Sequence record: NZ_MK262712.1
Strand: one strand, 5' to 3'
DNA: 64,000 nucleotides
DNA from: a plasmid
The stretch's first letter is position 1. Each line of letters starts with the position of its first letter. The notes beneath the pieces were generated by a model that saw only the letters and a list, made by a program, of their open reading frames with translations, was not told the DNA's origin and ran no database searches. The position numbers and the translations under genes were made by a program. This document shows positions 3,008-17,413 of the stretch, piece by piece.

Positions 3008-4831
3008 TCATTGTAAACACATATCTTCACTTCCCTCAATAATTGGTATTTCTTCAGCTAACTCAACTACTTTCGGGAACGACTCAGTGATAAACTCTGA
3101 CGGTTTCCCATGCCAGGTAATGTAAAGCTCAAGCTCTGCCCTTGTCATCCCAACAAAAAATAAACGACGCTCCTCTTCTATCCCTTCATCACCGATAACC
3201 TTCGGTGAGGGTATTTGGTCGTGGTTGCAGTTGATGATTAGTACTTTTTTCCATTCCAGTCCTTTGGAACCATGGAGCGTGCAGAGACAGATTCCACTTT
3301 GCTCTGTTTCACTAGATTCCACTTTGTTACCCATGGTCATGCCAGCTGCAATATTTAGCATCTTAAGCCATCCATCTTTCATTGCCCAACGGTAGCATGA
3401 CATTAAAGAAATCCGGGTTACTGACGAATCACCTTTCGTATTGGACATCTTGTATCCGGCCATTTCTAACCATTCTTTAATTTTTTTAAAACGGTTTTCA
3501 ATTTCTTCTTTGACTCGTGTATCAGTCATCATCGGTGCCATGTGCTTGTGTAGGGTTTTGGTAAGGACTGATGCATCAGGAGGTAAATCAGTTTGTTGAA
3601 AAGTAACTTTTTTGGAACTCATATGCTTCCACACTGTGTCCAAAACTTGTTCATCCTCATTGAGGAAAGATAGAACTCGTTTCATCAGACCGATGTTACC
3701 TGGCTGTCGGAAAAAGGAGAACAGATGGAGAATGTTACTTGGCTCTAATCCCTCCCAGAAGGATTTTCCCCCTATCCTCGTAACCGGAACTTCAAGATAA
3801 CTTTCCATTTTGTCGAGTGTCGTGTTGTTTCGGCTTAAAATCGCCCAATCATGAGGGTTTTTCTCCACCAGCTCCTTGATCACATCAAATTGGTCGTCTG
3901 CCTTATCCGATCTTATAAAAGTTACTTTTCCTTTATCCCCATTTCTGCCTGACACGAGACTCTTTTCATAGCGGGCTTTGTTCTTTCTGATCACTGTATC
4001 AGCAAATTTAAGGATCAATGGTGCACACCTGAAACATTTGGTCAGGTGAAAAACGTTAGGATTATATGCTTTATCAAACTGACGAAAGATCTTAACTCCA
4101 CCTGCATCTCTGAAACTGTATATTGTCTGGTCATCATCGCCTACGATTGTGGTGTTGATGCCCCTCTTTGCGTGCTCAGATATCCAAGTGAATTGAATAC
4201 CATCGGTGTCCTGTACTTCATCAACAATCAGATGAGTAATACTTAAAGGCCTCATCTTATCGGCACTCAACATGCCCACTACATACTTTGAAAGTGAGTT
4301 AAAATCTGCAACATTATCCTTTTTGCAAAAGCTCATGTACTCGTTGTAGAACGCCACCTGGTCGCGTGTATATTTAATCCTGATAATGTCCGGGTTAAGC
4401 TCCCGGCCAATGCCGTCGATGAATGGCATTATGTCGTTCACACTTTCATGGTAGTTAAGATGTTTTTGTACCCGTGATACCATCGCCATTTGTTTGTGTC
4501 CGATTAGAAGCCCTCCTTTCCAACCGGTCTGGTTTACCATTTTTTTTATAAAACCGTGAAAGGTATCGACCTCTATACGGTTGAGAAACCTCGGCTCTAT
4601 CATTTTCTGGAGGCTATTTTTTAAAGAGTCTGTGGCCGCACGGGTAAAGGTTACCAGGGATACCCGGGCCAATGGATGACGTTGAAAAATGGCTTTTGTT
4701 CCCTCCTTCATGGTGAAGGATTTGCCACTCCCTGGACAGGCAATGACCATCGTGTTTTTATCCATATTTTGTATAACACGCTCTTGTTCTTCTGTACTCG
4801 ATGACATCTTAGCTCCTTCCTGTTCCGGCAT
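3008..4831 (-). CDS. UvrD/Rep-family superfamily-1 DNA helicase
   Basis: N-terminal UvrD signature (EEQERVIQN...MVIACPGSGKSFTM, Walker A), DExx box (LIVDEVQDTD), and characteristic later helicase motifs (VGDDDQTIYSFRDAGG ... LCTLHGSKGLEWKKV ... FVGMTRA). Confidence 0.8.
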   Translation of the reverse strand: MPEQEGAKMSSSTEEQERVIQNMDKNTMVIACPGSGKSFTMKEGTKAIFQRHPLARVSLVTFTRAATDSLKNSLQKMIEPRFLNRIEVDTFHGFIKKMVNQTGWKGGLLIGHKQMAMVSRVQKHLNYHESVNDIMPFIDGIGRELNPDIIRIKYTRDQVAFYNEYMSFCKKDNVADFNSLSKYVVGMLSADKMRPLSITHLIVDEVQDTDGIQFTWISEHAKRGINTTIVGDDDQTIYSFRDAGGVKIFRQFDKAYNPNVFHLTKCFRCAPLILKFADTVIRKNKARYEKSLVSGRNGDKGKVTFIRSDKADDQFDVIKELVEKNPHDWAILSRNNTTLDKMESYLEVPVTRIGGKSFWEGLEPSNILHLFSFFRQPGNIGLMKRVLSFLNEDEQVLDTVWKHMSSKKVTFQQTDLPPDASVLTKTLHKHMAPMMTDTRVKEEIENRFKKIKEWLEMAGYKMSNTKGDSSVTRISLMSCYRWAMKDGWLKMLNIAAGMTMGNKVESSETEQSGICLCTLHGSKGLEWKKVLIINCNHDQIPSPKVIGDEGIEEERRLFFVGMTRAELELYITWHGKPSEFITESFPKVVELAEEIPIIEGSEDMCLQ

Positions 4832-5097
4832 AAATCATGTCACATTCAGGAAAGAATTTTCTGAAATAGAGGCTGTTTTTCGTTTTATCTTCAGTATTTT
4901 GTATCATTGACTGCTCCCCGCCCAGAATGTACTGCACCTTTACTCAGTTGGAGTTCAACTTTTGGGATGCAGTTCAAAACAGGGCGAGGATTCCAACCCG
5001 CACGGGACGAGATTTCTAGGGAACTTAACTGATAAAAGCACCTTTAAAAGCACTCTTAAGCGTGCTATAATTGAGACTCTGAACAGGAGGTTTTTTT

Positions 5098-5346
5098 ATG
5101 GCATTTCAGGTACTAACCACTACTGCAGCAAGCATCACAGAGCTTAAACGTGATCCTATGGGCACTTTCAATGCAGGAGAAGGTGCCCCTGTAGCCATAC
5201 TGAATCGCAACGAACCCGCTTTTTACTGTGTACCGCCTGCTCTGTATGCTCAACTGATGGAGCTTCTTGAAGATCAGGAGCTGGGTCGTATTGCTGATGA
5301 GCGAATTGGTGAGGCGGTAATCGAGGTCAGTCTAGATGACTTATAA
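5098..5346 (+). CDS. Type II antitoxin, Phd/YefM-RelB (StbD-like) family
   Basis: 82 aa. The conserved Phd/YefM core (ITELKRDPMGT...APVAILNRNEPAFYCVPPALYAQLMELLED) overlaps the downstream toxin gene by 11 nt. Confidence 0.75.
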   Translation: MAFQVLTTTAASITELKRDPMGTFNAGEGAPVAILNRNEPAFYCVPPALYAQLMELLEDQELGRIADERIGEAVIEVSLDDL

Positions 5347-5620
5347 GCTGGCCTTTAATGAATCAGCTCTGAAAGAATGGAAAAAATTGGGCCATACCAT
5401 TCGGGAACAATTCAAAAAGAAGCTCGCTGAGCGCCTGTTGAACCCACGGGTGCCCGCATCGCAACTACATGGACGCAAAGACCAATACAAAATAAAGCTC
5501 CGTGGCGCAGGCTACCGACTGGTTTACAGTGTCAACGATGATGTTGTGACGGTCACCGTAATTGGCGTCGGTAAACGTGAGAATGATGATATTTACAATT
5601 TAACCAAACACAGAAATTAA
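5336..5620 (+). CDS. Type II toxin, RelE/ParE (StbE-like) family
   Basis: 94 aa. Typical RelE/ParE features (LAFNESALKEWKKL ... YKIKLRGAGYRLVYSVNDDVVTVTVIGVGKREN), translationally coupled to the upstream antitoxin. Confidence 0.75.
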   Translation: MTYKLAFNESALKEWKKLGHTIREQFKKKLAERLLNPRVPASQLHGRKDQYKIKLRGAGYRLVYSVNDDVVTVTVIGVGKRENDDIYNLTKHRN

Positions 5621-5639
5621 GAGCCCATTCGTTCAGGTA

Positions 5640-7048
5640 TTTAGTCACAAAAACAATCTTTACATGTAATAAATAGTCGGAATACCGACTTCTGTTTATT
5701 TCCTGCACCTGTTGACTCCGTGATATATATATGGTTATTTATACAGGTTGTCTCAATACACTCTGAATGCAAAATGCTAATCCAGAAAGCGTATAAATAC
5801 AGACTCAACCCGACAGATGCACAGGCGCAACGACTGCGTCAGATGTGCGGCTGCGCCCGTTTTGTCTGGAATTACGCCCTGGCAGAGACGCAGCGTATTC
5901 TTGAGGCCGGACAAAAACTCCCTTCCGCCTTTGAGCTGAATAAAATGCTGACAGGATGGAAGAAATTACCTGACCTGGCGTTTTTATCTGATGCCTACAC
6001 CGACAACCTTCAGCAGAAACTGAAAGACCTGCACGGGGCATGGATACGGTGCTTTGATAAAAAACTGGCAGCGAAAGCGCCCGTGTTCAAACGTAAAACC
6101 CACGGCAATGATTCCGTTCGTTTCGTCAATTTTGACAAATACTGCCAGCTTGAGTACAGACGCGTTAAGTTACCCTCGGGGCTGGGCTGGGTGACATTCC
6201 GGCAGTCCCGGGCCGTTGTGGGTAAAATCAAAAACGCAACGGTCAGCCAGCACGCTGGCGGCTGGTATATCTCGTTTCAGGTAGAAATGGAGGTCGAACA
6301 GCCCGCGCACCCGTCAACGTCTGCTGTCGGCCTGGATGCCGGTATCTGCAAGCTGGTAACGCTGTCAGACGGCACGGTGTTTGAACCTGTCAACAGTTTT
6401 AAACAGAACCAAAGCAGACTGGCAAGGTTACAGCGCCAGCTTGCCCGTAAAGTGAAATTCAGCGCAAACTGGAAGAAGCAGAAAGCAAAAATTTCCCGCT
6501 TACACGCGCATATCACCAATATCCGCCGCGATTACCTTCATAAAGTCACGACAACAATCAGCAAAAACCACGCGATGATCGTTATTGAAGATTTGAAGGT
6601 TTCCAACATGGCGAAATCGGCAGCGGGTACGGCAGACGAGCCGGGGCGCAACGTTACGGCAAAATCAGGTCTTAACCGGGCGATACTGGATCAGGGCTGG
6701 TACGAAATGCGCCGCCAGCTCGAATATAAGCAGCGATGGCGCGGCGGTGAGGTGCTGGCAGTAAATCCGGCCTACACCAGCCAGAAATGCGCCTGCTGTG
6801 GTCATACCTCGAAGGAAAACCGTCAATCGCAGGCCACATTTGTCTGCGTGGCGTGTGGATACGAAGCGAATGCTGATGTAAACGGCGCTTGTAATATTTT
6901 AGCGGCAGGACATGCCGTACTTGCCTGTGGAGGGACGGTGCAGTCAGTCCGCCCGATGAAGCAGGAACCTGGCACTGAGCGATCAGTCGTCACCCACTAA
7001 TGGGAATCCCCCTCCTGAATCGCGCAGCGTGAAGGTGGGGAGGATGTC
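5640..7048 (+). mobile_element. Partial IS200/IS605-family element: tnpB with only a tnpA 5' remnant (solo-tnpB copy)
   Basis: Bases 5640-5773 are about 90% identical to 7909-8037 of the full copy, including the first codons of tnpA. tnpA is otherwise missing. The subterminal hairpin right end gggaatccccctcctga...gtgaaggtggggagga is shared with copy 2. Confidence 0.7.
5774..7000 (+). CDS. tnpB: IS200/IS605-family TnpB (OrfB) RuvC-like nuclease, copy 1
   Basis: [17 protein letters not shown]...; C-terminal zinc finger CACCGH...[18 protein letters not shown]. Nearly identical to copy 2 except for the last ~25 codons. Confidence 0.85.
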
Positions 7049-7053
7049 AAATT

Positions 7054-7116
7054 CCGTATAACACGTTCTTGTTCTTCAGTACTTGATTACATCTTAATTC
7101 CCTTATGTTCCTGCAT
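7054..7116 (-). pseudogene. Duplicated 5' fragment (about 20 codons plus promoter) of the UvrD-like helicase gene, truncated at the IS end
   Basis: 7054-7175 is about 75% identical to 4790-4900 (the helicase start and upstream region). The minus-strand reading MQEHKGIK*SSTEEQERVIRN matches helicase MPEQEGAKMSSSTEEQERVIQN but carries an in-frame stop. Confidence 0.45.
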
Positions 7117-7270
7117 AAATCATTTCACATTCAGGAATTATTTTTGGAAATATAGGCTTTTTAGTTTTTTTCATGATTTTTTCCTCGTCACCGGTAGCTC
7201 AAGTTAACAGCCTCCCCCTCTCTGAAGAAGGGCGAGGATTACCACTTCAACGCAACCTACCTAAACCACA

Positions 7271-7480
7271 TTAAGCGGCTTTAGGGTTTACAGTCGCTCC
7301 GTGGGCTAATGTGATCAGCCCGACCGCTTTTATATTCTTCGCCGCATTTACGTCACTATCATGGTTAGCCCCACATTCAGGGCAAATCCATGACCTGACG
7401 TTAAGCGCCATTTTTGTCATGGTATAGACGCAACCGCTATAGCGTTTTGAGGACGGGAAAAACTGGTCAATGGCGACCAC
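7271..7480 (-). pseudogene. C-terminal fragment of a different IS200/IS605-family tnpB
   Basis: 69-aa ORF ends with the TnpB zinc finger CPECGANHDSDVNAAKNI and has no N-terminal RuvC part. A hairpin-rich end follows at 7185-7270. Confidence 0.55.
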
Positions 7481-7573
7481 GGATCGCCCCGACCATCTTT
7501 TGTCTCAAAGGGTACTCCCACCGTGGCAGGCGGGAGGGGAATTTGAATTGACGCGCTAGCGTTAAAGGAACAT

Positions 7574-7972
7574 TTAGCCGCGCTGGTGCTGAATGTAGCG
7601 CTTTACGACTTCCAGCGGTGCTCCACCACATGACCCAACAAAGTAGCTGCGTGACCAGAGAACAGGCTTATTGTACGCCTCCCGCAAATCCAGAAATTCA
7701 TTCCGTAGCCGCCGACTTGTGACGGCTTTCAGGCTGTTAACCAGTTTTGACAGTTGCACAGTTGGTGGGTATTCGACCAGCATGTGAACATGATCGGCTT
7801 CTCCGTCACATTCTTTCAGTACAGCACCGAAATCACCGCAAACTTCACCTGCATACTGATTTACTTTTTCCAGATGTAACTCACCGAAAACTTTACGGCG
7901 GTACTTAGTCACAAAAACAATGTGAACATGTAATAAATAGGCAGAATGACGACTTCTGTTTATTTCCTGCAC
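7574..7972 (-). CDS. tnpA: IS200-type Y1 HuH transposase TnpA
   Basis: 132 aa with HuH motif HVHMLV and the conserved SRSYFVGSCGG tail. Confidence 0.85.
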   Translation of the reverse strand: MQEINRSRHSAYLLHVHIVFVTKYRRKVFGELHLEKVNQYAGEVCGDFGAVLKECDGEADHVHMLVEYPPTVQLSKLVNSLKAVTSRRLRNEFLDLREAYNKPVLWSRSYFVGSCGGAPLEVVKRYIQHQRG

Positions 7973-8037
7973 CTGTTGACTCCGTGATGTACATATGGTT
8001 ATTTATACAGGTTATCTCAATACACACTGAATGCAAA

Positions 8038-9225
8038 ATGCTAATCCAGAAAGCGTATAAATACAGACTCAATCCGACAGATGCACAGGCGCAACGACTG
8101 CGTCAGATGTGCGGCTGCGCCCGTTTTGTCTGGAATTACGCCCTGGCAGAGACGCAGCGTATTCTTGAGGCCGGACAAAAACTCCCTTCCGCCTTTGAGC
8201 TGAATAAAATGCTGACAGGATGGAAGAAATTACCTGACCTGGCGTTTTTATCTGATGCCTACACCGACAACCTTCAGCAGAAACTGAAAGACCTGCACGG
8301 GGCATGGATACGGTGCTTTGATAAAAAACTGGCAGCGAAAGCGCCCGTGTTCAAACGTAAAACCCACGGCAATGATTCCGTTCGTTTCGTCAATTTTGAC
8401 AAATACTGCCAGCTTGAGTACAGACGCGTTAAGTTACCCTCGGGGCTGGGCTGGGTGACATTCCGGCAGTCCCGGGCCGTTGTGGGTAAAATCAAAAACG
8501 CAACGGTCAGCCAGCACGCTGGCGGCTGGTATATCTCGTTTCAGGTAGAAATGGAGGTCGAACAGCCCGCGCACCCGTCAACGTCTGCTGTCGGCCTGGA
8601 TGCCGGTATCTGCAAGCTGGTAACGCTGTCAGACGGCACGGTGTTTGAACCTGTCAACAGTTTTAAACAGAACCAAAGCAGACTGGCAAGGTTACAGCGC
8701 CAGCTTGCCCGTAAAGTGAAATTCAGTGCGAACTGGAAGAAGCAGAAAGCAAGAATTTCCCGCTTACATTCGCATATCGCCAACATCCGCCGCGATTACC
8801 TTCACAAAGTCACGACAACAATCAGCAAAAACCACGCGATGATCGTTATTGAAGATTTGAAGGTTTCCAACATGTCGAAATCGGCAGCGGGTACGGTAGA
8901 CGAGCCGGGGCGCAACGTTGCGGCAAAATCAGGTCTTAACCGGGCGATACTGGATCAGGGCTGGTACGAAATGCGCCGCCAGCTCGAATATAAGCAGCGA
9001 TGGCGCGGCGGTGAGGTGCTGGCAGTAAATCCGGCATATACCAGCCAGAAATGCGCGCGTTGCGGTCATACAGTAAAGGAAAATCGTCAATCGCAGGCAG
9101 TATTTGTCTGCGTGGCGTGTGGATACGAAGCGAACGCCGACATAAACGGCGCTCAAAATATTCTCGCGGCAGGACATGCCGTGTTGTCCGGGATTAACCC
9201 CGGACGCGCCCGTAAGGCGGCGTAA
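8038..9225 (+). CDS. tnpB: IS200/IS605-family TnpB (OrfB), copy 2
   Basis: Same as copy 1. Zinc finger CARCGH...[18 protein letters not shown]. Confidence 0.85.
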   Translation: MLIQKAYKYRLNPTDAQAQRLRQMCGCARFVWNYALAETQRILEAGQKLPSAFELNKMLTGWKKLPDLAFLSDAYTDNLQQKLKDLHGAWIRCFDKKLAAKAPVFKRKTHGNDSVRFVNFDKYCQLEYRRVKLPSGLGWVTFRQSRAVVGKIKNATVSQHAGGWYISFQVEMEVEQPAHPSTSAVGLDAGICKLVTLSDGTVFEPVNSFKQNQSRLARLQRQLARKVKFSANWKKQKARISRLHSHIANIRRDYLHKVTTTISKNHAMIVIEDLKVSNMSKSAAGTVDEPGRNVAAKSGLNRAILDQGWYEMRRQLEYKQRWRGGEVLAVNPAYTSQKCARCGHTVKENRQSQAVFVCVACGYEANADINGAQNILAAGHAVLSGINPGRARKAA

Positions 9226-9326
9226 GCCGTTAAGCGAGGAACCGGGCAATGCGGTAACGCGTTGCTACCCTACAAAGGGAATCCCCTTCCTGATTCACGT
9301 AGTGAGAAGGTGGGGGAGGATGTCAA

Positions 9327-10420
9327 GTAGCTGAACATTTCCAGGAACGATATTGCAGCGCCTGAGATGTTCAGCCAGAGTTGCCCTTGACTGACCATGG
9401 CGTTGGTTCGTTTCATGCTCGCTTCGAAGAGTTGGTAATCTGCGGCGATACCCAACGACTTGCGATACTGCAGCACACCTTTATCTATTTGGTTGAGGAC
9501 AAAAGCCCCTGTGGTGATATCGTGAGCCTGACCAGCGCTTCCAAAAAGCGAAGACGCCACACCTTGCAGAAAGTCACTTTTTTGTCCTGACTCTTCTTTA
9601 GCCGATTCAACAAACTGATTCATCTGCCCTATACGTTTCATGATAGATACGCCCAGGCGTCGGAACAGGATGCATACTGCAGTCCGGTGGATGTCACCAT
9701 GTGGACGCTGGCCGTCTTCAGGCTGTTTGTCGTCATTGAATCCATCACCGTTTCTATTGAACCAAGATCAGTGACATAGATTTCATTTAACGCCACCCCT
9801 CTTAGTGGGGTCTGAACCTCTGAGTCCTGGGTCGTTTTAATACAATCGCGTGCAATAGACTGGATGATTCTGCAGACATCAAAGGCGACAGGTTTTTCAC
9901 TCCCGCTCATCGTATTCGGGAAAGCCTGACAGAACCCACTGGATTCCCCGCCCCACTCCATATATTTGACCATTTTTGTCATTGGCCCCAGCGTCAGGCT
10001 GTCATCGAGCGTGTCAGTGACCTGCCCCACCGGCGTAAGCGGGTCAAACGCTGCTCGCCAGTCCGTAATTAGCCCGTGAAGTAATCCGGTTGTCAGTTAA
10101 CCGGTTGACGCGATAAATAACGGTACATTGTCTATGTTCCTGACCTCCCCTGTTTTAACCGATTCCAGAGTGACATCGGCTTTAATGACGGGAATTGAAT
10201 AGAACAGCAACCCCATTATCCAGCAGAAGATCGGGACTTCGTTTTTTGTGGGGGCAAGGACCCACCGCAGGGATTTATAAAAAAGTCCAATTGCTGCTGC
10301 ATATTCAGCAAATCTGAGCCATTCATTGGATCCGTGAGTGGAAATAATCAGCGCGATCCCGTAAAAGCCGTATAAACAAAATCGATATCACTAATGGTAT
10401 ATATAGTAAAGTTGCTCATT
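9327..10420 (-). pseudogene. traG/trhG-like (F-type mating-pair-stabilisation protein) N-terminal fragment, frameshifted and truncated by the IS
   Basis: Minus-strand reading MSNFTIYTISDIDF then shifts frame to ...GIALIISTHGSNEWLRFAEYAAAIGLFYKSLRWVLAP...VKTGEVRNIDNVPLFIASTG*. This resembles the F TraG N-domain (...VKVHRVDNVPVGLA...). It continues in ORFs 9638..10030 and 9270..9641. The last 19 codons are read from the IS right end. Confidence 0.4.
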
Positions 10421-10925
10421 TACCCCCCTACACTGTATTGAGGGTAGCTGACCTCTATTAGATACGTTGAATCTATGCCGAAAACGACGTCTCATGTTGA
10501 GTTTGAAAGTTGCATTAAATCGACTCCTGACAGTACTACTGGGAAAAGTAACTCTTCTAAAAAAGTTACTTTTTGGTAGTTTCTCCTCGAAGGTTTCGAG
10601 GCATGGTGTAAAGCACTTATGCCTCCTGGTAGAAGGTTCACTTTTTTCTCGCCATACAAACAATTAACAACGCTGAGTATCTTTCTATGTCTTATCATCT
10701 TTTCAGCCCATTGGTGCAATCTATATATTTTCACATAGTTGAATTTTATTTCTTCCAAATAAGGGTAGGGAAAATCGAAAAAGTTGATTTTTTTTTGGAC
10801 AGGTATATTTTCAACTTTAACGCCTGTTTTTGAGTTTGGTTACTCAGATGTCCAACCGAAAAATAGTATCTTGCACGTGCATAATTTTATGAAATAATGA
10901 TGGAAACAACCACTGGGGCATTTCA

Positions 10926-11774
10926 ATGAAAAAAACATTATTAGCTATCCTCACATGCACTCTTCTGGCCGGATGCGCCACTCAACCACAGAGCCCAGAT
11001 AACCGTATGTTCACAAAAGAACACGGTGTTTACTGGCATGCAGATCCTCAAAAATCGGTGGCAACGAACGCATACGCACTTGCAGGTGTACCAGTAAATG
11101 TAGATGAAGCAGAGAATGCAGGAGGGGGAGTTGATGAAGGTCTTGCTTCAAAAATGCTTCTGAACACTGCTACCGGTGTAATAACAGGCGGGCTTAAAGC
11201 TGGAATTGGGATGTTTACGGCATCACTCTACAGCGAGGCTGATGCTGAATTTCTCATGGTTCCACAGAGTGTGGTTTTCGTTTCAAATCCTCGCAATCTT
11301 CCTTATGACGACCCATCACTTATAAAAGAAGGGGCCAGAATTGTTATCGAGTCAATAAAGGAACAACCTAAAATTTTAGGTGCAACTTATGAGGGTCAAA
11401 TAAACGCCTTGAACGCATGCACAATCTCAAAATCTTCAATGGGACCTTGGGATAGTTGCGAACTTAAATCAAAGGTAGAAAACTCAGGGGATGTAGGAAG
11501 TGAGTTCTTCAAATACCAGGTTATCCGGCCAGCAACTGGTGATGAATTAGCTCAGCTTTCGTTGCCAAAAGGTAATTACTCGATAATTCGATATACTAAT
11601 ATTTTTAGTAAGAATGCTACATTTATGACTAATAACTTTCCAGGTTTTATTCTACAGCCTCAATCAAAGAAAACAGCACCTGGATTTCCTAGTGTGACAA
11701 TTAATAATCTTGAATATTATTTTATTAAAGGTGATCTTGGAAAGAAAGGATTTCCTCATAAGAAAGAAATATAA
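10926..11774 (+). CDS. Lipoprotein, 282 aa
   Basis: Signal peptide plus lipobox (LLAGC|ATQPQ). Confidence 0.5.
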   Translation: MKKTLLAILTCTLLAGCATQPQSPDNRMFTKEHGVYWHADPQKSVATNAYALAGVPVNVDEAENAGGGVDEGLASKMLLNTATGVITGGLKAGIGMFTASLYSEADAEFLMVPQSVVFVSNPRNLPYDDPSLIKEGARIVIESIKEQPKILGATYEGQINALNACTISKSSMGPWDSCELKSKVENSGDVGSEFFKYQVIRPATGDELAQLSLPKGNYSIIRYTNIFSKNATFMTNNFPGFILQPQSKKTAPGFPSVTINNLEYYFIKGDLGKKGFPHKKEI

Positions 11775-11826: not shown

Positions 11827-14800
11827 TTAATTGAATTACCAGTTACAGGATCAACGTAGACAGAGCCTACCTCACATACACTTGGTCTCGGAAGGTATGA
11901 ACAATCTACATTGTTGCCATTAATTGCCTGCACATTCTCTTCTCTCGCTTTGGTCATATTGATACTACCCCCCATCGACTCCAGTGTTCGCTCCGAGGAC
12001 AATTGCGCCTCGTTATTTTTATATGGACCCATATTAGCTACAGAACTCTCTGTGAATGCTGCGTATTCATCCGGGACTTCCCCCGCGACAACTGCTGATT
12101 CAATATACTCAGTCATATCTATTTTATCCCAGTCAAGTTGCTGGACCTGTGAGATAGTTAATCCCACACAACCACTTTCTACAGGATTAATTCCCAATTG
12201 CGGATATGCCTGCTGCATTATTACCCTTGATAATAAAGAGTTATAACAGCACATGTCGGTTGCTTTTTTAATGCACTTCTTAGTGAAGCCAACGTTGAGA
12301 TATTTAACGCAACGATCTGTATCAATAACAAAACATGCCCCTTGGTTTTTGTGAATTGACGCTTCCATCTCTTTTTGGTCACAAGCCAGAAGCATTTCGA
12401 GAAGCATTTTTGTGATTTGATAAGCAGTATATATCCAACCAACTATGTTTAAAGCTAACATAAAATTCTGAACAGCACTTGAGAAAACTGCCTGTCCAAG
12501 TTGTGTGGTGGCCGTCTTATCAAACACAAAGTCCCTGATTGCATCGGGCAACATATCGTAAGCTTTATTCATCAACTGCTGTTTTATTGCAGCGAGACCG
12601 CCGGTCTGTAACCCATCTTTGGTGAGCTCTGTTGTAACAGCTGAACCTCCCCCTTCAACTGTTGAAGAGCCAATAAGTCTCGAGACGTTTCCTGCTATTG
12701 ATTCATAAGCAGAAGTTAGTGGTTCAGTCACGCGTTGCCACATTTGGCCCACGCTTGAAGATACACCGGAGGTCCATTGTCCGACAGAGTTCGTCATCGA
12801 TGCCCACGTACCTGACTCACCACCAGTCCAGGTTGTCAGCTTTGCTGATATTTTTTCCCAGTTTGTGTTTCTGAGCATTGTCCCGGCTAAGATAATTGCC
12901 TCTAGTTTTCCGGCTGCACCTTTAGGAGCTTCGCAGCAATCTGTTTTTGCCAACCCGTTTACAAAGCCTACAGAACGGCCACACCATTGCTTCTCTCCGG
13001 AGAAGACAATGCAACTATTGGGGTCGTTAGGGTCACTACACATAGCATCGCCCTGCATGTTCTGAACCATGCTGCTATAGGCTGCGACCTTACCGAAATC
13101 ACTGTTTTGTTCATTCGCACCGGTATTACAAGTACCTCCTGAACATGGGATCATGCCTACGCAGGTGTTTGCTTCGTTTGTTACTGTCACAGTCCTTGTT
13201 ATTCCTTCATCACAGGTCCACTTTTGTTCGTACATGTAACATTGATTAGTAGCAGAATCGAACCATCCCTCAGCGCATGTTTGACTGGACATAGTGCATG
13301 CAGAGTTTGTAGAGTATTTTGAACATGCATCAGGCATATTCTTTATCTGGTCATAATTGTAACAAGCCTCATTGCCATTCTCATCTTTAAGAATATTTCC
13401 TGATGCATCATACTGACATAATTTTTCTTTCCCTAACGGATCGCAAAAATATCCTTCTAGATTAGTTTTCCAGGTTAAGTTACCTTGGTCTCCTTCATAT
13501 AAAGGTGATGCATATTGCAATATCGATTGTGGTAAACGTTTAGTGCCTACATCAAGATCGGCAAAACGATCAAACCTGCAAAATGAACCTGTTTGTTTAA
13601 CAACATCGTAGCAGCCAGGTGGGTCCTGTATATGTTTATCTTCAAGTTTGATATTTTCAAAAATTAGTTCTACTTCAAAGTACCCTTCACCGTTACCCCC
13701 GACCCATACAGTAGATGACATTTCAACTTCGTGGTCACTTTCTTTGTACACGGATTCTGAAACTTGGCGCGTTATATCAATAGGTTCCTTTAATTTATTC
13801 GATTTATTTCTCTCCATGCCATTACGTGGTGGGCCATAACCAGGTTCGCGATATTCACCATCGATATGAGCAAAAATCTGCTTGCCATCAAGATTAACTT
13901 GCATGTGGTCATCCCACTCAGCATTTACTATGCTTGCTGATTTTAAGATAGCGTCCTGGTGGAAATGAAGCGTCATGCTATTGTCATAAACACCACCAGA
14001 CCAGTAGTCATTACCACGCTTTCCGAACCAGATACGTATACAGTTATCGCCACATACGCTTAGGTCACCATTACCACCAGAGATGTAAACTGGTACACTG
14101 AAGTCACGTGTAATAGTGCAACTACCATAATTATCTTTTTTAGGTGCGTTACAGTAATATTCCTTATAATCAGGAATATGTTTTTCTTTTGTTGTAGTTG
14201 TGGTCTGTGTTGAACAGTTTTGCAACCATTGACCCGTACCAGCCGCTGCGTTTGCTATTTCATTTCTGCCACTTGTAAACATTGGGTCATTTGGCGAAAT
14301 ATTAGGGGCTGGATTGGATTTTGTTGCAGCCACCAGCGAACGATATGCTTGCCCATCATAACTATTAGCAGTGAATAATTGACTCTTACGAGTTTTTATA
14401 TCGTTAATGAATCCTTTCTCGTCACCATAACTATCACCAGCATTAAACTGAACATCAGCATTATTTTGCTCTGAACTATACATTTCAGCTGTATTGGTAC
14501 TAGTGATCGCGCCTCCAGGATTGGGGTTGTTACTTATAGATATACTTCCATCCTGGTTACGTGAAAGTAACTTTCCACCGTTTTCTGAACCTTTTATGTT
14601 TATATTATTACCGTTCATGTTGGGTAGCATTACCGTACCAGCGATGTCCGAACCATCAGTTTTGGCATAATTCAAAACATCATCATTTGTGAATGTTTTT
14701 CCACCATATTTCTTCAGGTCCATTGACGAACTGTTAGTACTATCAAAACCATTTATTTTGTCGGTATAAGAAGGATTTTCACTATTCTTATATTTTTCTA

Positions 14801-15017: not shown

Positions 15018-16055
15018 TTAACCAAGCCACCTTACGCAGCAATCGTTATAACGCCAAAGCATGTATACATAGTTATTTACACCTATACGTTTTCGTCCGC
15101 CCTTCCGTGTCGACCAGTCATGAACAGAATCACCAAGTCTATGACAACATTCCGGTCCTTCTGCTTCCGGTACGGGATACAGCATCGATAGCCTGTACTG
15201 TGATCTAGGCATGAAATAACTGAACCTGCGTTCGCACATAGCGTCCTGGCCCATGGTTTTCATCAACATTCCTTGCCTGTGCAACTTGGTAATCATTCGT
15301 TGAGTTAATAATGAGGAAACCCGGACTGAATCGTCATTCGCAAAAACATGGCCGGTTAGCGGATAGAGGTTACCATCACAACCTGCACAAAAGTGGGCAC
15401 TCAGATTGTCAGCCCCAGCTGTAACCTTCACACAGTCAGCTGCGCACCACATTGAAGCAATAGGATTTGCGAAAACAACTGCCTCAGGATTTAATACGAG
15501 TGTAAGCAGGTCATTTTCCCAGAGCGGATCAACTTCGCTAATGTAGGTAAGAGACGGGTCAATATAAGGCTCAGCGGTACAATCCCCCATAATGAGGAGC
15601 TTAAGCATCACTAGGATCGGAAACTCCCATAAGTGAACATCATAAAACCCTGCCTCATTACCCCCTTTGGGCCTGTTAGTTGCTCCTTTCCCCATATCGA
15701 AGCTTGAAGACTGAAGACTAACCCCTTCAAGGAATGGCGAACACCATGGTGACTGTACAACCTCTACTATTTTTACTGGTTGGAAAAACGACAGTTGCCA
15801 TCCTACCTCTGGGACCCCATTTTGATCTGTGCAATAACATACGGGTTGTGACGGTGCAGCCCCTTCTGGTGAGGAGCCTACTCCCATAATGCGCATTGGA
15901 AAAATACAGCTCCAACAGATGTTTTTAATCAAACCTTTCCAAACACCGGCCGATTGACAGATTCCGCTACCCGTCTCAGCCCCAATCGCCATTCCTGGTA
16001 AAGCCAGGCTGAGCATGACAGCAGTGAATGCTGACAAAAGTAACTTTCGTATCAT
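15018..16055 (-). CDS. trhU: TraU-like T4SS protein (TrhU)
   Basis: Signal peptide and the TraU hallmark ICWSCIFPMRIMG. ATGA overlap with the upstream gene. Confidence 0.8.
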   Translation of the reverse strand: MIRKLLLSAFTAVMLSLALPGMAIGAETGSGICQSAGVWKGLIKNICWSCIFPMRIMGVGSSPEGAAPSQPVCYCTDQNGVPEVGWQLSFFQPVKIVEVVQSPWCSPFLEGVSLQSSSFDMGKGATNRPKGGNEAGFYDVHLWEFPILVMLKLLIMGDCTAEPYIDPSLTYISEVDPLWENDLLTLVLNPEAVVFANPIASMWCAADCVKVTAGADNLSAHFCAGCDGNLYPLTGHVFANDDSVRVSSLLTQRMITKLHRQGMLMKTMGQDAMCERRFSYFMPRSQYRLSMLYPVPEAEGPECCHRLGDSVHDWSTRKGGRKRIGVNNYVYMLWRYNDCCVRWLG

Positions 16056-17413
16056 TGAGCCGCCTCTTTTTCTGATTGCTGATTTATACGCGTATACTCG
16101 CGTACATCTGCCTGAGCAAACTGCTGTACTTTGAAGTAGGTTCCTTCAACCGATATGATTGTAGGGGTGGACTTAATCAGGAACCGGCTAATGATTTCAG
16201 GGTTGATCTTGTACATCTGCCCATAGAACTGGCCGCGCAACTCCTCTAAATGCTTCCAGCCATCATCACGTTTGATTCGCGTAAAAATGGGCATAACTTT
16301 TCCTTCGCCGAAACGGTGACGAAACTGTATTTTGGCCCATGTCAGCTGCTCAGAATTCATTGGGTCAAAAACGATCATTGTCAGTTTCTGTGGAAATTGA
16401 GCAAGAGGATTTCCCTTCTGCCCTGCGGCAGCAATGAGGTTACCTTGGTTATCTCTAATATCTTGGTTTACCTGAATTGTTGGGTCGATATACCAGATTT
16501 TATTCTCGTCAGATACGGGAAGGGACGCCATCCACTGATTTTGCCAAGTTGATTTTATTGCGTTCTTTTTGGCCGCCTCCCAGTCATATTTATTACTTCT
16601 CTCCTCAAGTTCCTGTACAATACTTTTCTCTTTTATAGGGAATGTTTGGGCTGAAACCGGGAAGGTTGTTTTTTCTGGGTTTTCCTCGATCTGTTTCATG
16701 AAATACTTAATGTTAATCGACCCACTAATCTTGTAGGTTTTATCATCTTTTCTGTACACCATCGTTGGAACTTCTTTTACGCTATACTGGGTAAAACTTT
16801 CCGGATCGAGGGTGACTAAAGGTTCTTTTTTTATTTTTGCTTTAGATATATAATCACGCAGCACTACCTGCATCTGAATAAGGTTTTCTACACCTTCCTT
16901 AAGCCCCCTGAACACCACGCGCGCATTGTTTTCCGATGCTGTTTTAATCAGGTCTATCAATACATAGTCTGGCATGCTGAATGATGCAAATATTGTCAAG
17001 CCATTATCAGTCGATAGTTCTTCATTTTTGTTGTTATCTAATTTACGTTCGAAGTCCTGTGCAGTAATCCCCGACTTCCCAAACATTTTTTCAACGTTGG
17101 AAGACTGGGTTCGCATTGACTCGTTTTTTGACTTGTTAATTGTGTCTGCCTCTTCAGAGAAGGCCTCTGTAGACTGATTCTTTTTTATGTCCTGCGCAAT
17201 ATCACTCATCGCTTCCACTTCACGCAGCTTACCTGTGTGTTCTATCACCGCACGCACACTGTCGGAGACAGAGCTGGGATTGTACCGGGGTGTGCCGACA
17301 ATCGACTCTATGCTTTGAGTCTTTGCATGATCAATAGAGTCATCGGCATATGACAGAGATGTAGCTAACAGGCAGCTAAAAAGTAACTTTTTAATACATT
17401 CAGAAGATGGCAT
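16052..17413 (-). CDS. trhW: TraW/TrbC-fusion-like T4SS protein (TrhW-like)
   Basis: Size and position match the H-type TrhW, which fuses TrbC and TraW. A likely signal peptide starts at MPSSECIKKLLFSCLLATSLSYA (start 17413). The ORF track extends to 17488. Confidence 0.6.
   Translation of the reverse strand: MPSSECIKKLLFSCLLATSLSYADDSIDHAKTQSIESIVGTPRYNPSSVSDSVRAVIEHTGKLREVEAMSDIAQDIKKNQSTEAFSEEADTINKSKNESMRTQSSNVEKMFGKSGITAQDFERKLDNNKNEELSTDNGLTIFASFSMPDYVLIDLIKTASENNARVVFRGLKEGVENLIQMQVVLRDYISKAKIKKEPLVTLDPESFTQYSVKEVPTMVYRKDDKTYKISGSINIKYFMKQIEENPEKTTFPVSAQTFPIKEKSIVQELEERSNKYDWEAAKKNAIKSTWQNQWMASLPVSDENKIWYIDPTIQVNQDIRDNQGNLIAAAGQKGNPLAQFPQKLTMIVFDPMNSEQLTWAKIQFRHRFGEGKVMPIFTRIKRDDGWKHLEELRGQFYGQMYKINPEIISRFLIKSTPTIISVEGTYFKVQQFAQADVREYTRINQQSEKEAAQ

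Follow-up and report, generated by a model that had tools for sequence, protein, structure and literature searches.

The spacer between a UvrD-like helicase gene and the lipoprotein/traN genes of this plasmid is layered scar tissue left by CCAT-targeting elements of the IS605 group and reshaped by recombination between insertion sequence (IS) copies and by deletion, a reading to which we give a probability of about 0.8. The window, meaning the whole 64,000-nucleotide stretch of record NZ_MK262712.1 that was analysed, comes from a Klebsiella megaplasmid (IncFIB/IncHI1B by its PLSDB matches), and the locus occupies a variable spacer, with the helicase on one side and the lipoprotein/traN genes on the other. 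About 170-180 public plasmid records carry the whole arrangement (180 PLSDB records at ≥80% coverage of 4600-9600), and it is not specific to this sample. An earlier note, made from the letters alone, had described a nested IS200/IS605 rearrangement, with a solo tnpB copy and a complete tnpA/tnpB element, at a hotspot of repeated IS605-family insertion with an adjacent deletion. Our analysis confirms this: the four pieces named in the note are all there, at similarities well beyond chance, and one element does sit within the tnpB of another. The region is ordinary debris from small IS200/IS605 transposons that inserted and recombined repeatedly, a kind of element already known from well-sequenced plasmids, and no new functional system has formed at the locus. 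Its features, in window coordinates, are as follows.

3008..4807, minus strand: resident UvrD-like helicase (W allele), intact, ATG at 4807
4809..4907, minus strand: helicase leader ORF, 32 aa, MIQNTEDKTKNSLYFRKFFPECDMIYAGTGRS, ending 1 nt short of the helicase ATG
4907..4996, minus strand: probable IS-X-type right-end relic, its terminus abutting the leader-ORF start codon
5098..5620, plus strand: Phd/YefM-RelE/ParE toxin-antitoxin pair, the present left neighbour of IS1
5637..7050, plus strand: IS1, truncated IS605-group element without a left end; intact tnpB at 5774-7000; right end terminating GGAGGATGTCAA at 7050
7051..7092, minus strand: helicase 5' fragment, 14 codons (7092 to 7051), reading M, a stop (TAA at codon 2) and SSTEEQERVIRN
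7103..7174, minus strand: leader ORF copy, MKKTKKPIFPKIIPECEMIYAGT, which aligns with the leader of plasmid L002
~7203..7496, minus strand: IS-X remnant, a third and different tnpB; last 76 codons (7496 to 7271) with the first zinc-finger cysteine pair mutated; right end from ~7270 to 7203
7493..7496, plus strand: CCAT target of IS2, within the tnpB of IS-X, where the minus strand reads GAATGG (codons E-W)
7497..9326, plus strand: IS2, complete IS605-group element; left end with hairpin, 7497-7573; tnpA on the minus strand, 7574-7972 (Y1_Tnp full length, E = 2.2e-40); tnpB, 8038-9225; right end terminating GGAGGATGTCAA at 9326
9327..10413, minus strand: traG2, second traG copy, 5' 1.1 kb (~360-370 codons), cut at CCAT
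10414..10886, minus strand: what remains of the DNA upstream of traG2, homologous to a small hypothetical gene of plasmid L047

Two CCAT-targeting elements and their junctions

IS2 is the complete tnpA/tnpB element that the earlier note took it to be: Y1_Tnp and TnpB domains are present and both ends are defined. The ends were set by copies in other sequence contexts, which align from 7493. IS2-type copies in other plasmid contexts are 98-99% identical, which suggests that the element was recently mobile. Among species-representative genomes (one per species), the nearest TnpA relatives are 78-82% identical and belong to Pantoea, Aeromonas, Photorhabdus and Xenorhabdus. A literature search for these elements found neither an ISfinder name nor a reported CCAT motif.

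In other genomes, about 18 insertions that arose independently share one pattern: the left end follows CCAT (rarely CTAT), and the right end terminates in GGAGGATGTCAA. In the window, the IS1 right end abuts the helicase fragment at precisely the point that reads ATCCAT/ATTCCG in intact helicases (the slash marks the junction); across this site the intact L002 helicase reads ...TTTATCCAT/ATTCCGTATAACACG, and the fragment begins ATTCCG. The right end of IS2 meets the traG fragment exactly where intact traG reads AACCAT/GTAGCTG. Because both right ends coincide exactly with CCAT sites of intact genes, these are genuine transposase ('peel-and-paste') junctions. The empty traG and helicase sites equal the left motif plus the right flank with nothing duplicated, and the group inserts 3' of CCAT without target duplication. 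The elements carry subterminal hairpins and not terminal inverted repeats: the left-end hairpin, CTCCCACC...GGCGGGAG, is visible, and the predicted right-end hairpin is conserved with compensatory changes.

The earlier note had seen that the first tnpB copy keeps only the first tnpA codons, and we count 24 of them in IS1 (5708 to 5637, minus strand, VQEINRSRYSDYLLHVKIVFVTKY). This remnant is joined, within a microhomology of ~10 nt (GGTAYTTAGT), to DNA just downstream of relE, part of a toxin-antitoxin pair for which Pfam matches (ParE_toxin, E = 3e-13; PhdYeFM, E = 5.5e-5) and annotation agree. IS1 lacks both a left end and a full tnpA, and because the left end is missing it should be immobile.

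Gene pieces beyond the right ends

The resident helicase matches UvrD-helicase (E = 1e-33) and UvrD_C (E = 2e-29) in Pfam, and near-identical plasmids annotate it as an ATP-dependent helicase. The piece at 7051-7092 holds no full-length ORF and is a pseudogene fragment. The earlier note had described it as a duplicate of the helicase start, about 75% identical over some 20 codons and with an in-frame TAA. The similarity is real, with 7048-7168 aligning to 4763-4886 at E = 7e-27, and so is the TAA, but the identity is 81-83% and the coding part 14 codons. The note was also right that an IS cut this helicase copy, as the junction falls exactly at a CCAT that is intact in IS-free plasmids. The fragment copy and L002 both retain the C-terminus of the leader, PEC[DE]MIYAGT; for L047 the leader was translated by hand.

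A comparison with IS-free relatives, as the note had proposed, is informative here. In the sister plasmids L002/L003 the helicase is followed by 280 bp and then the lipoprotein gene, the CCAT site is intact and there is a single helicase at the locus; homology of L002 to the window resumes at 10887. Identity of the fragment to the helicase start of these sisters is 92% (E = 1e-49), and because that to the resident gene is only 81-83%, the source appears to be a foreign or replaced allele rather than a local duplication. The note's second helicase paralogue is thus not the favoured reading, given the closer sister allele, the single helicase of the IS-free relatives and an IS left flank that is unrelated. 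A chimeric resident helicase with its breakpoint at the IS1 site (4766) was considered and rejected, as identity to L002 declines gradually into the leader/UTR with no step at 4766.

The DNA at 9327-10413, whose identity the earlier note did not give, is the first 1.1 kb of a ~1310-codon TraG (TraG_N) gene and not a full-length one. It is 81-90% identical to the traG of L045/L046, in which the site reads AACCAT/GTAGCTGAACATTTC. The Raoultella plasmid L047 has a full-length traG2 (1314 aa) at the same position, and window 9324-11302 is collinear with L047 6890-8905. The plasmid's real traG is intact and lies elsewhere (L050 3576-7544).

A third tnpB and a probable right-end relic

The fragment at 7271..7480, which the earlier note assigned to the C-terminal TnpB zinc finger of another IS, matches Cas12f1-like_TNB in Pfam as expected (E = 2.5e-12, zinc-ribbon part only) and extends to 7496. 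Together, the IS-X tnpB and right end show ~88% DNA identity to a full-length tnpB, with its right end, of the Serratia proteamaculans plasmid L052. The closest full-length relatives, L051 and L052, have tnpB without an adjacent tnpA.

An IS right-end relic probably also lies upstream of the resident helicase leader, a feature absent from the earlier note. Positions 4907-4922 match the L052 right-end terminus GGCGGGGAGCAGTCAA at 16/16 bases (z = 5.2 against shuffles), with a partner half, GGAATCCTCGCCC, at 4982-4994. We call the relic probable only, because the match to the L052 terminus is significant whereas the alignment of 4907..4996 to the window's own IS-X is not. A tRNA-like origin of GGAATCC near 4990 was tried as well, and ARAGORN found nothing.

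Homogenised tnpB copies and their predicted guides

In a self-comparison the tnpB-bearing copies align from 5637/7900 to 7050/9326, and the alignment agrees with the earlier note that they are ~97% identical over ~1.2 kb and diverge at their last ~25 codons. Identity is ~98% over 5688-6787, including an identical core of 650 bp (5810-6460), and drops to 84% over 6788-6887 and to ~65% past 6920; the proteins part after ...AAGHAVL, with 25 versus 12 residues. Both contain the Pfam domains OrfB_IS605, Cas12f1-like_TNB and HTH_OrfB_IS605 (core, zinc ribbon and N-terminal HTH). Gene conversion has homogenised the two copies, a point that the earlier note had not described. In the sister lineage L004, too, the two tnpB copies share blocks of 100% identity, which are that lineage's own.

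The RuvC D-E-D motifs GLDAGI, VIEDL and NADVNGA line up with the catalytic motifs of a solved, AI-designed nuclease of the TnpB type (9yyg), and the same motifs occur in the tnpB of IS2. In a consensus fold of the tnpB 3' region built from 15 relatives, 15 of the 37 pairs show compensatory changes. The fold of the element itself has a z-score of -5.1 in IS2 and of -0.6 in IS1, where ~6905-7050 fits the conserved structured region. Rfam gave only a sub-threshold match, to RAGATH-18 (IS1 6924-6967, 28.4 bits versus 44.9). Both tnpB genes look able to make an RNA-guided nuclease, with guides read from the flanking helicase and traG DNA. CCAT is, we infer, the TnpB motif too, and the predicted cleavage targets would be CCAT plus ATTCCGTATAACACGT (helicase A allele) and CCAT plus GTAGCTGAACATTTCC (traG).

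Such targets raise the idea, which we consider improbable, that the tnpB genes of IS1 and IS2 are kept as an RNA-guided weapon or gene drive against rival IncHI1B plasmids, host copies escaping by mismatches near CCAT. CCAT followed by a perfect match to the 37 bases past the IS1 right end occurs in 138 PLSDB plasmids, and in PLSDB the perfect helicase site and the fragment are never on the same plasmid, but this follows trivially from there being one helicase per plasmid. The 15 bases past the IS2 right end likewise match the traG sites of L045, L046 (18) and L047 (31). Mismatches to the guides fall at positions 4, 5 and 16 in the host helicase and at 1, 4, 13 and 16 in the host traG, but these counts are those of background divergence (81-83% identity at the helicase start, 88.8% in traG), and selection for guide escape in the two host genes was rejected for that reason. 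The genes are intact, with catalytic residues kept and a predicted structured 3' region, and targeting of the empty site is TnpB's established role (PMC8612924); however, the low dN/dS of tnpB (0.15-0.2) may date from the elements' mobile phase.

A proposed history of insertion, deletion and patch exchange

Neither IS has left and right flanks from one and the same gene, and because the two flanks belong to different DNA we infer that recombination or deletion followed insertion. The left end of IS2 lies after a CCAT within the IS-X tnpB, and the present order most likely arose through homologous recombination of one IS copy with another, or from deletions beside the left ends. Such events would account for the loss of the helicase body, of the first three-quarters of the IS-X tnpB and of ~2.8 kb of traG2, and a separate microhomology deletion would have taken the IS1 left end and tnpA from codon 25 onward. 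The helicase fragment would stem from an allele like that of the IS-free sisters, and most likely arrived, or was left behind, by patch exchange with crossovers inside IS1 and near 11.1 kb. A PLSDB search for a surviving intermediate, with an IS left end fused to the body of the helicase, found none, so the order of events given here is a reconstruction.

Comparison with plasmid b141b gives 97-100% identity in the backbone on both sides and 65-95% between 5645 and ~11100. A first comparison, with L004, had given 97% to the left and 88% to the right of the IS, as in a switch of the whole backbone there; the extended comparison ruled this out, the divergent patch being confined to 5645 to ~11100.

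In L004 the left junction of the solo tnpB is another one, made up of 12 tnpA codons and a 100-bp repeat of the 3' end of a different gene, and the spacer between the two IS copies differs from the window's, so tnpA must have been deleted independently at least twice. The 100-bp repeat, which flanks both IS copies, was tried as a traG 3' end and dropped, as it had no match to traG C-termini. Synonymous divergence between the IS2 tnpA and that of L004 is saturated, yet both elements occupy the same traG2 site, which requires a further replacement event.

A local duplication could also place two helicase starts here: two tandem helicases, each with a leader ORF and an IS-X right end, one of them lost to IS1 insertion and deletion. 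This was the main reading of the earlier note. IS1 does meet the helicase at a real insertion junction, and the resident helicase and the fragment probably both have an IS-X-type right end upstream of the leader, which could mean a duplicated module. We think it unlikely, however: the two right-end relics lie 0 and ~25 nt from the leader ATG, share none of the intervening DNA and look like separate insertions, the fragment resembles the helicase of other plasmids (92% identity) more than the resident copy (81-83%), and two helicases occur at the locus in no relative examined. Less likely still, and hard to credit, is the IS-mediated transduction that the earlier note offered as an alternative, in which a transposon end was skipped and the helicase piece or the toxin-antitoxin block was carried with IS1 as a passenger. 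IS1 does have flanks unrelated to one another and, being without a left end, must have undergone some aberrant event, but its tnpA truncation lies within microhomology, as is typical of deletion, and its right end, with the normal terminus GGAGGATGTCAA, sits at the canonical CCAT of the helicase, the outcome of simple insertion. The helicase piece lies beyond that normal junction, no substitute right end was identified, and the sole right-end-like sequence past the piece, that of IS-X, is in the opposite orientation; transduction thus has no positive support. We favour CCAT-targeted insertion reshaped by IS-IS recombination and deletion.

Discussion

The elements in the window resemble IS605 and IS608 of Helicobacter pylori and ISDra2 of Deinococcus radiodurans in having a Y1 (HUH) TnpA together with TnpB, subterminal hairpins, insertion 3' of a fixed short motif without target duplication and a predicted guide-RNA region that overlaps the tnpB 3' end and the right end; as in IS605, tnpA and tnpB are divergent. 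Unlike IS608, which targets TTAC, and ISDra2, which targets TTGAT (PMC8612924), they use CCAT, and their TnpB is only a distant match to that of ISDra2 (8h1j, 8exa; phmmer E = 1.5e-45). IS1 consists of tnpB and a right end, as do solo-tnpB (IS1341-type) elements, and the IS-X relatives L051 and L052 are likewise without an adjacent tnpA. Unlike IS1341-type elements, however, IS1 is not naturally tnpB-only, as 24 tnpA codons are left and the rest was probably lost by microhomology deletion.

Hybrid IS flanks, lost intervening DNA and a divergent patch in a backbone of 97-100% identity are also what recombination between IS copies produces in large resistance plasmids. IS-mediated deletion and patch exchange are usually described for IS26, the IS1 family and similar elements. 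Here, unlike in those cases, the portable homology is an IS605-family tnpB, the copies of which are gene-converted as well.

For annotation, the pieces of helicase, IS-X tnpB and traG should be treated as pseudogene debris, not as genes or a helicase paralogue. None of the three is listed in the PLSDB gene tables for near-identical records, but these tables omit pseudogenes, and the original records may annotate them. The locus offers a worked example of an enterobacterial IS605 group with a CCAT target, and of the homogenisation of co-resident tnpB copies by gene conversion. It also illustrates how IS605-family copies, acting as portable homology, would reshape the spacer beside the transfer genes of clinically important NDM-type megaplasmids, and the predicted guide-target matches to sister plasmids may provide a cheap, testable lead on any role for TnpB in plasmid competition.

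Nested IS copies flanked by gene remnants

The window comes from a conjugative Klebsiella megaplasmid of the pNDM-MAR-like IncFIB/IncHI1B type. In the IS-free sister plasmids L002 and L003, the helicase gene is separated from a lipoprotein gene by only 280 bp, so the approximately 6 kb found here is accessory. We distinguished the following features:

3008-4807 (-), resident helicase
4809-4907 (-), small leader ORF just upstream of the helicase
4907-4996 (-), probable remnant right end of IS-X type
5637-7050, IS1, a truncated solo-tnpB copy
7048-7168, helicase fragment
7103-7174 (-), leader ORF copy
7271-7480, TnpB zinc-ribbon fragment (E = 2.5e-12) of IS-X, a third, different tnpB
7497-9326, IS2, a complete tnpA/tnpB element
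9327-10886, stump of traG2, a second traG copy

Aligned with each other, the two copies that carry tnpB match from 5637/7900 through to 7050/9326, at approximately 98% identity over 5688-6787 (100% at 5810-6460), 84% over 6788-6887, and approximately 65% past 6920. Both TnpB proteins have OrfB_IS605, Cas12f1-like zinc ribbon, and HTH domains, with RuvC motifs intact. The tnpA of IS2 encodes a full Y1 transposase (E = 2e-40); IS1 has 24 tnpA codons left. As an earlier note proposed, the zinc-ribbon match is the C-terminal end of another IS family member, but the tnpB fragment ends at 7496 instead of 7480, followed by its own right end. A Serratia proteamaculans plasmid carries a full-length tnpB with right end to which this whole piece is approximately 88% identical at the DNA level.

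The helicase fragment aligns with the start of the resident gene (4763-4886) at 81-83% identity (E = 7e-27), so the similarity noted earlier at 7054-7175 is well significant and closer than the estimated 75%. It comprises 14 helicase codons, not about 20, with the in-frame TAA at codon 2, plus a copy of the leader ORF. The earlier note favored a second helicase paralogue destroyed by IS insertion or deletion. However, the fragment matches the L002/L003 allele at 92% identity and the resident gene at only 81-83%, and none of the relatives examined has two helicases at this locus. On these comparisons, the best reading is that the fragment stems from a different allele and became linked to this backbone through IS1, rather than being a local duplicate. 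The note's description of the region is thus accurate, with corrections to the identity, codon count, and fragment end; its interpretation holds in outline, but its preferred paralogue does not. We also considered the resident helicase as a chimera and rejected this, because its identity profile shows no step at 4766.

The leader ORF, also present in L002 (~7048-7122) and the Raoultella plasmid L047 (~390-490), stops 1 nt ahead of the helicase ATG. Its C-terminus, PEC[DE]MIYAGT, is kept across alleles that are only 70-85% identical elsewhere in the stretch, and the ORF may encode a leader peptide or a regulator translationally coupled to the helicase.

Ends, target, and predicted guides

We gathered relatives through TnpA and lined up the ends of ~18 independent insertions from Aeromonas, Photorhabdus, Xenorhabdus, and other genera. 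Left ends read ...CCAT/CTT... (slash, element boundary; one has CTAT) and right ends finish in ...GGAGGATGTCAA. Insertion in this element group is therefore 3' of CCAT, which places IS2 itself at 7497-9326; alignments to IS2 copies in other plasmid contexts begin at 7493 and end at 9326. The CCAT preceding IS2 lies within the IS-X tnpB. Intact helicases read TTTATCCAT/ATTCCGTATAACACG at the IS1 right-end site, and the helicase fragment begins ATTCCG; intact traG reads AACCAT/GTAGCTGAACATTTC, exactly the right flank of IS2. At the right end, then, both elements show a canonical insertion junction. Their left flanks do not correspond: IS2 follows the CCAT in the IS-X tnpB, and IS1 lacks a left end and adjoins a toxin-antitoxin pair.

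A common structure of 37 pairs, 15 with compensatory changes, is predicted for the last ~150 nt in 15 related elements; the sole Rfam match, RAGATH-18, was sub-threshold. IS1 matches the group consensus, while IS2 keeps the three 3' hairpins but differs in the 5' module. The consensus 5' module, CCUGUGGAG...GAUGAAGCAGG, is retained by IS1 (6905-6975), whereas the predicted guide-RNA region of IS2 (9178-9260) has two short hairpins there, despite TnpB proteins nearly identical across ~340-350 residues. Copies of the IS2-type 3' end that are 97-99% identical lie in other plasmid contexts as well.

Because the TnpB motif equals the TnpA target as a rule (PMC8612924), CCAT would also be the TnpB motif, and the guides predicted on the basis of that paper are ATTCCGTATAACACGT for IS1 and GTAGCTGAACATTTCC for IS2. 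In PLSDB, 138 plasmids have, within the helicase, CCAT followed without mismatch by the 37 bases that lie beyond the IS1 right end, and ~126 carry the helicase fragment; none has both. The resident helicase (ATTTTGTATAACACGC) mismatches the IS1 guide at positions 4, 5, and 16. The traG genes of L045 and L046 (plasmids with intact traG) and L047 match the first 15 bases of the IS2 guide (all 16 in L046 and L047), and the plasmid's own traG (found at L050 3576-7544) reads ATAACTGAACATCTCG, with 4/16 mismatches. These counts are those expected from local divergence (81-83% for the helicase, 88.8% for traG) and so give no evidence of selected guide escape. Homing on empty alleles is the normal role of TnpB (PMC8612924); participation in plasmid competition is conceivable, though unsupported.

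How the arrangement may have arisen

Each IS joins two unrelated flanks, most likely the mark of IS copies at separate sites having undergone homologous recombination, or of a deletion adjoining a left end. Such events would have removed the helicase body, three-quarters of the IS-X tnpB, and ~2.8 kb of traG2. The junction at which IS1 lost tnpA, most likely by deletion, sits in a microhomology, GGTAYTTAGT, common to DNA downstream of relE and tnpA codon 24.

Compared with the sister plasmid b141b (L004 and L053), the backbone shows 97-100% identity to either side of the region, which rules out a whole-backbone switch, but only 65-95% between 5645 and ~11100. In b141b, the left junction of the solo tnpB is different, and so is the spacer, which contains neither a helicase piece nor an IS-X piece. 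This pattern fits patch replacement, with one crossover in IS1, another near the lipoprotein gene, and either lineage as recipient; no surviving intermediate was found in PLSDB. Two other stretches, one in traN and one in the helicase, are far more divergent from b141b than the surrounding backbone (13426-13926, 83-92%; 3492-3742, 72%). Ahead of each IS copy in b141b lies one and the same ~100-bp gene 3' end (L004 8784-8882 and 10331-10432; ...VEVDLDAPLTDN*, ending GCTAT), with no match to traG or to any part of the window.

A four-way comparison revealed 100%-identical blocks between both tnpB copies inside each plasmid (5810-6460 here, other blocks in b141b), although the copies differ between plasmids, a pattern indicating concerted evolution by gene conversion. 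The two tnpA genes at the shared traG2 CCAT site (7574-7972; L004 10503-10928) are only ~70% identical at the DNA level, with saturated synonymous divergence, and the adjacent tnpB genes are 86-88% identical. The tnpA divergence at a common site implies that tnpA was swapped too, and the elements are mosaics from module exchange. The dN/dS of 0.15-0.2 in tnpB comparisons may reflect a past life as mobile elements rather than in-place selection.

At 9327-10413 lies the opening 1.1 kb of a traG gene. L047 encodes a full 1314-aa second traG at the same position, collinear with 9324-11302, which identifies 9327-10886 as what is left of a traG paralogue native to the spacer. In some relatives, as seen in L047 (4076-8301), the interval from helicase to lipoprotein gene holds the complete paralogue and a small gene upstream of it. 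The stump is ~89% identical to the plasmid's own real traG versus 79% to its L047 positional orthologue, which hints at gene conversion between traG copies.

Recurrent insertion and plasmid setting

The terminus of the probable remnant right end at 4907-4996 directly adjoins the resident leader ORF's start codon and matches the Serratia element at 16/16 positions; the hairpin loop carries a ~55-60 nt insertion. L047 appears to hold the uninterrupted site, GTTAT/TGATTC. A tRNA search found none. L047 also has an IS1-like tnpB (669-1877, 78% identical) in opposite orientation ~150 nt upstream of its helicase leader, and a further tnpA/tnpB element past lepB (15710-16533). In different lineages, this IS family has recurrently inserted upstream of the helicase.

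Many PLSDB records match the interval 4600-9600 at 99.6-99.9% identity, and 180 records cover at least 80% of it. In p44-1 (NZ_CP025462.1, 99.86% identical), the annotated order is ATP-dependent helicase, Phd/YefM and RelE/ParE, TnpB, tnpA, TnpB, hypothetical lipoprotein, and TraN and TrhU. Beyond the window in this plasmid (44.9-47.4 kb; L049 ~9323-11766), a Cas6/Cse3-like gene adjoins a helicase C-terminal-domain gene, a pair we take to resemble plasmid-borne type IV CRISPR-Cas. Type IV systems are known on IncHI1B plasmids. We conclude that the whole feature is of an already known kind: debris of the usual IS200/IS605 sort together with a single complete element, carried by a plasmid lineage of which ~170-180 copies are public.
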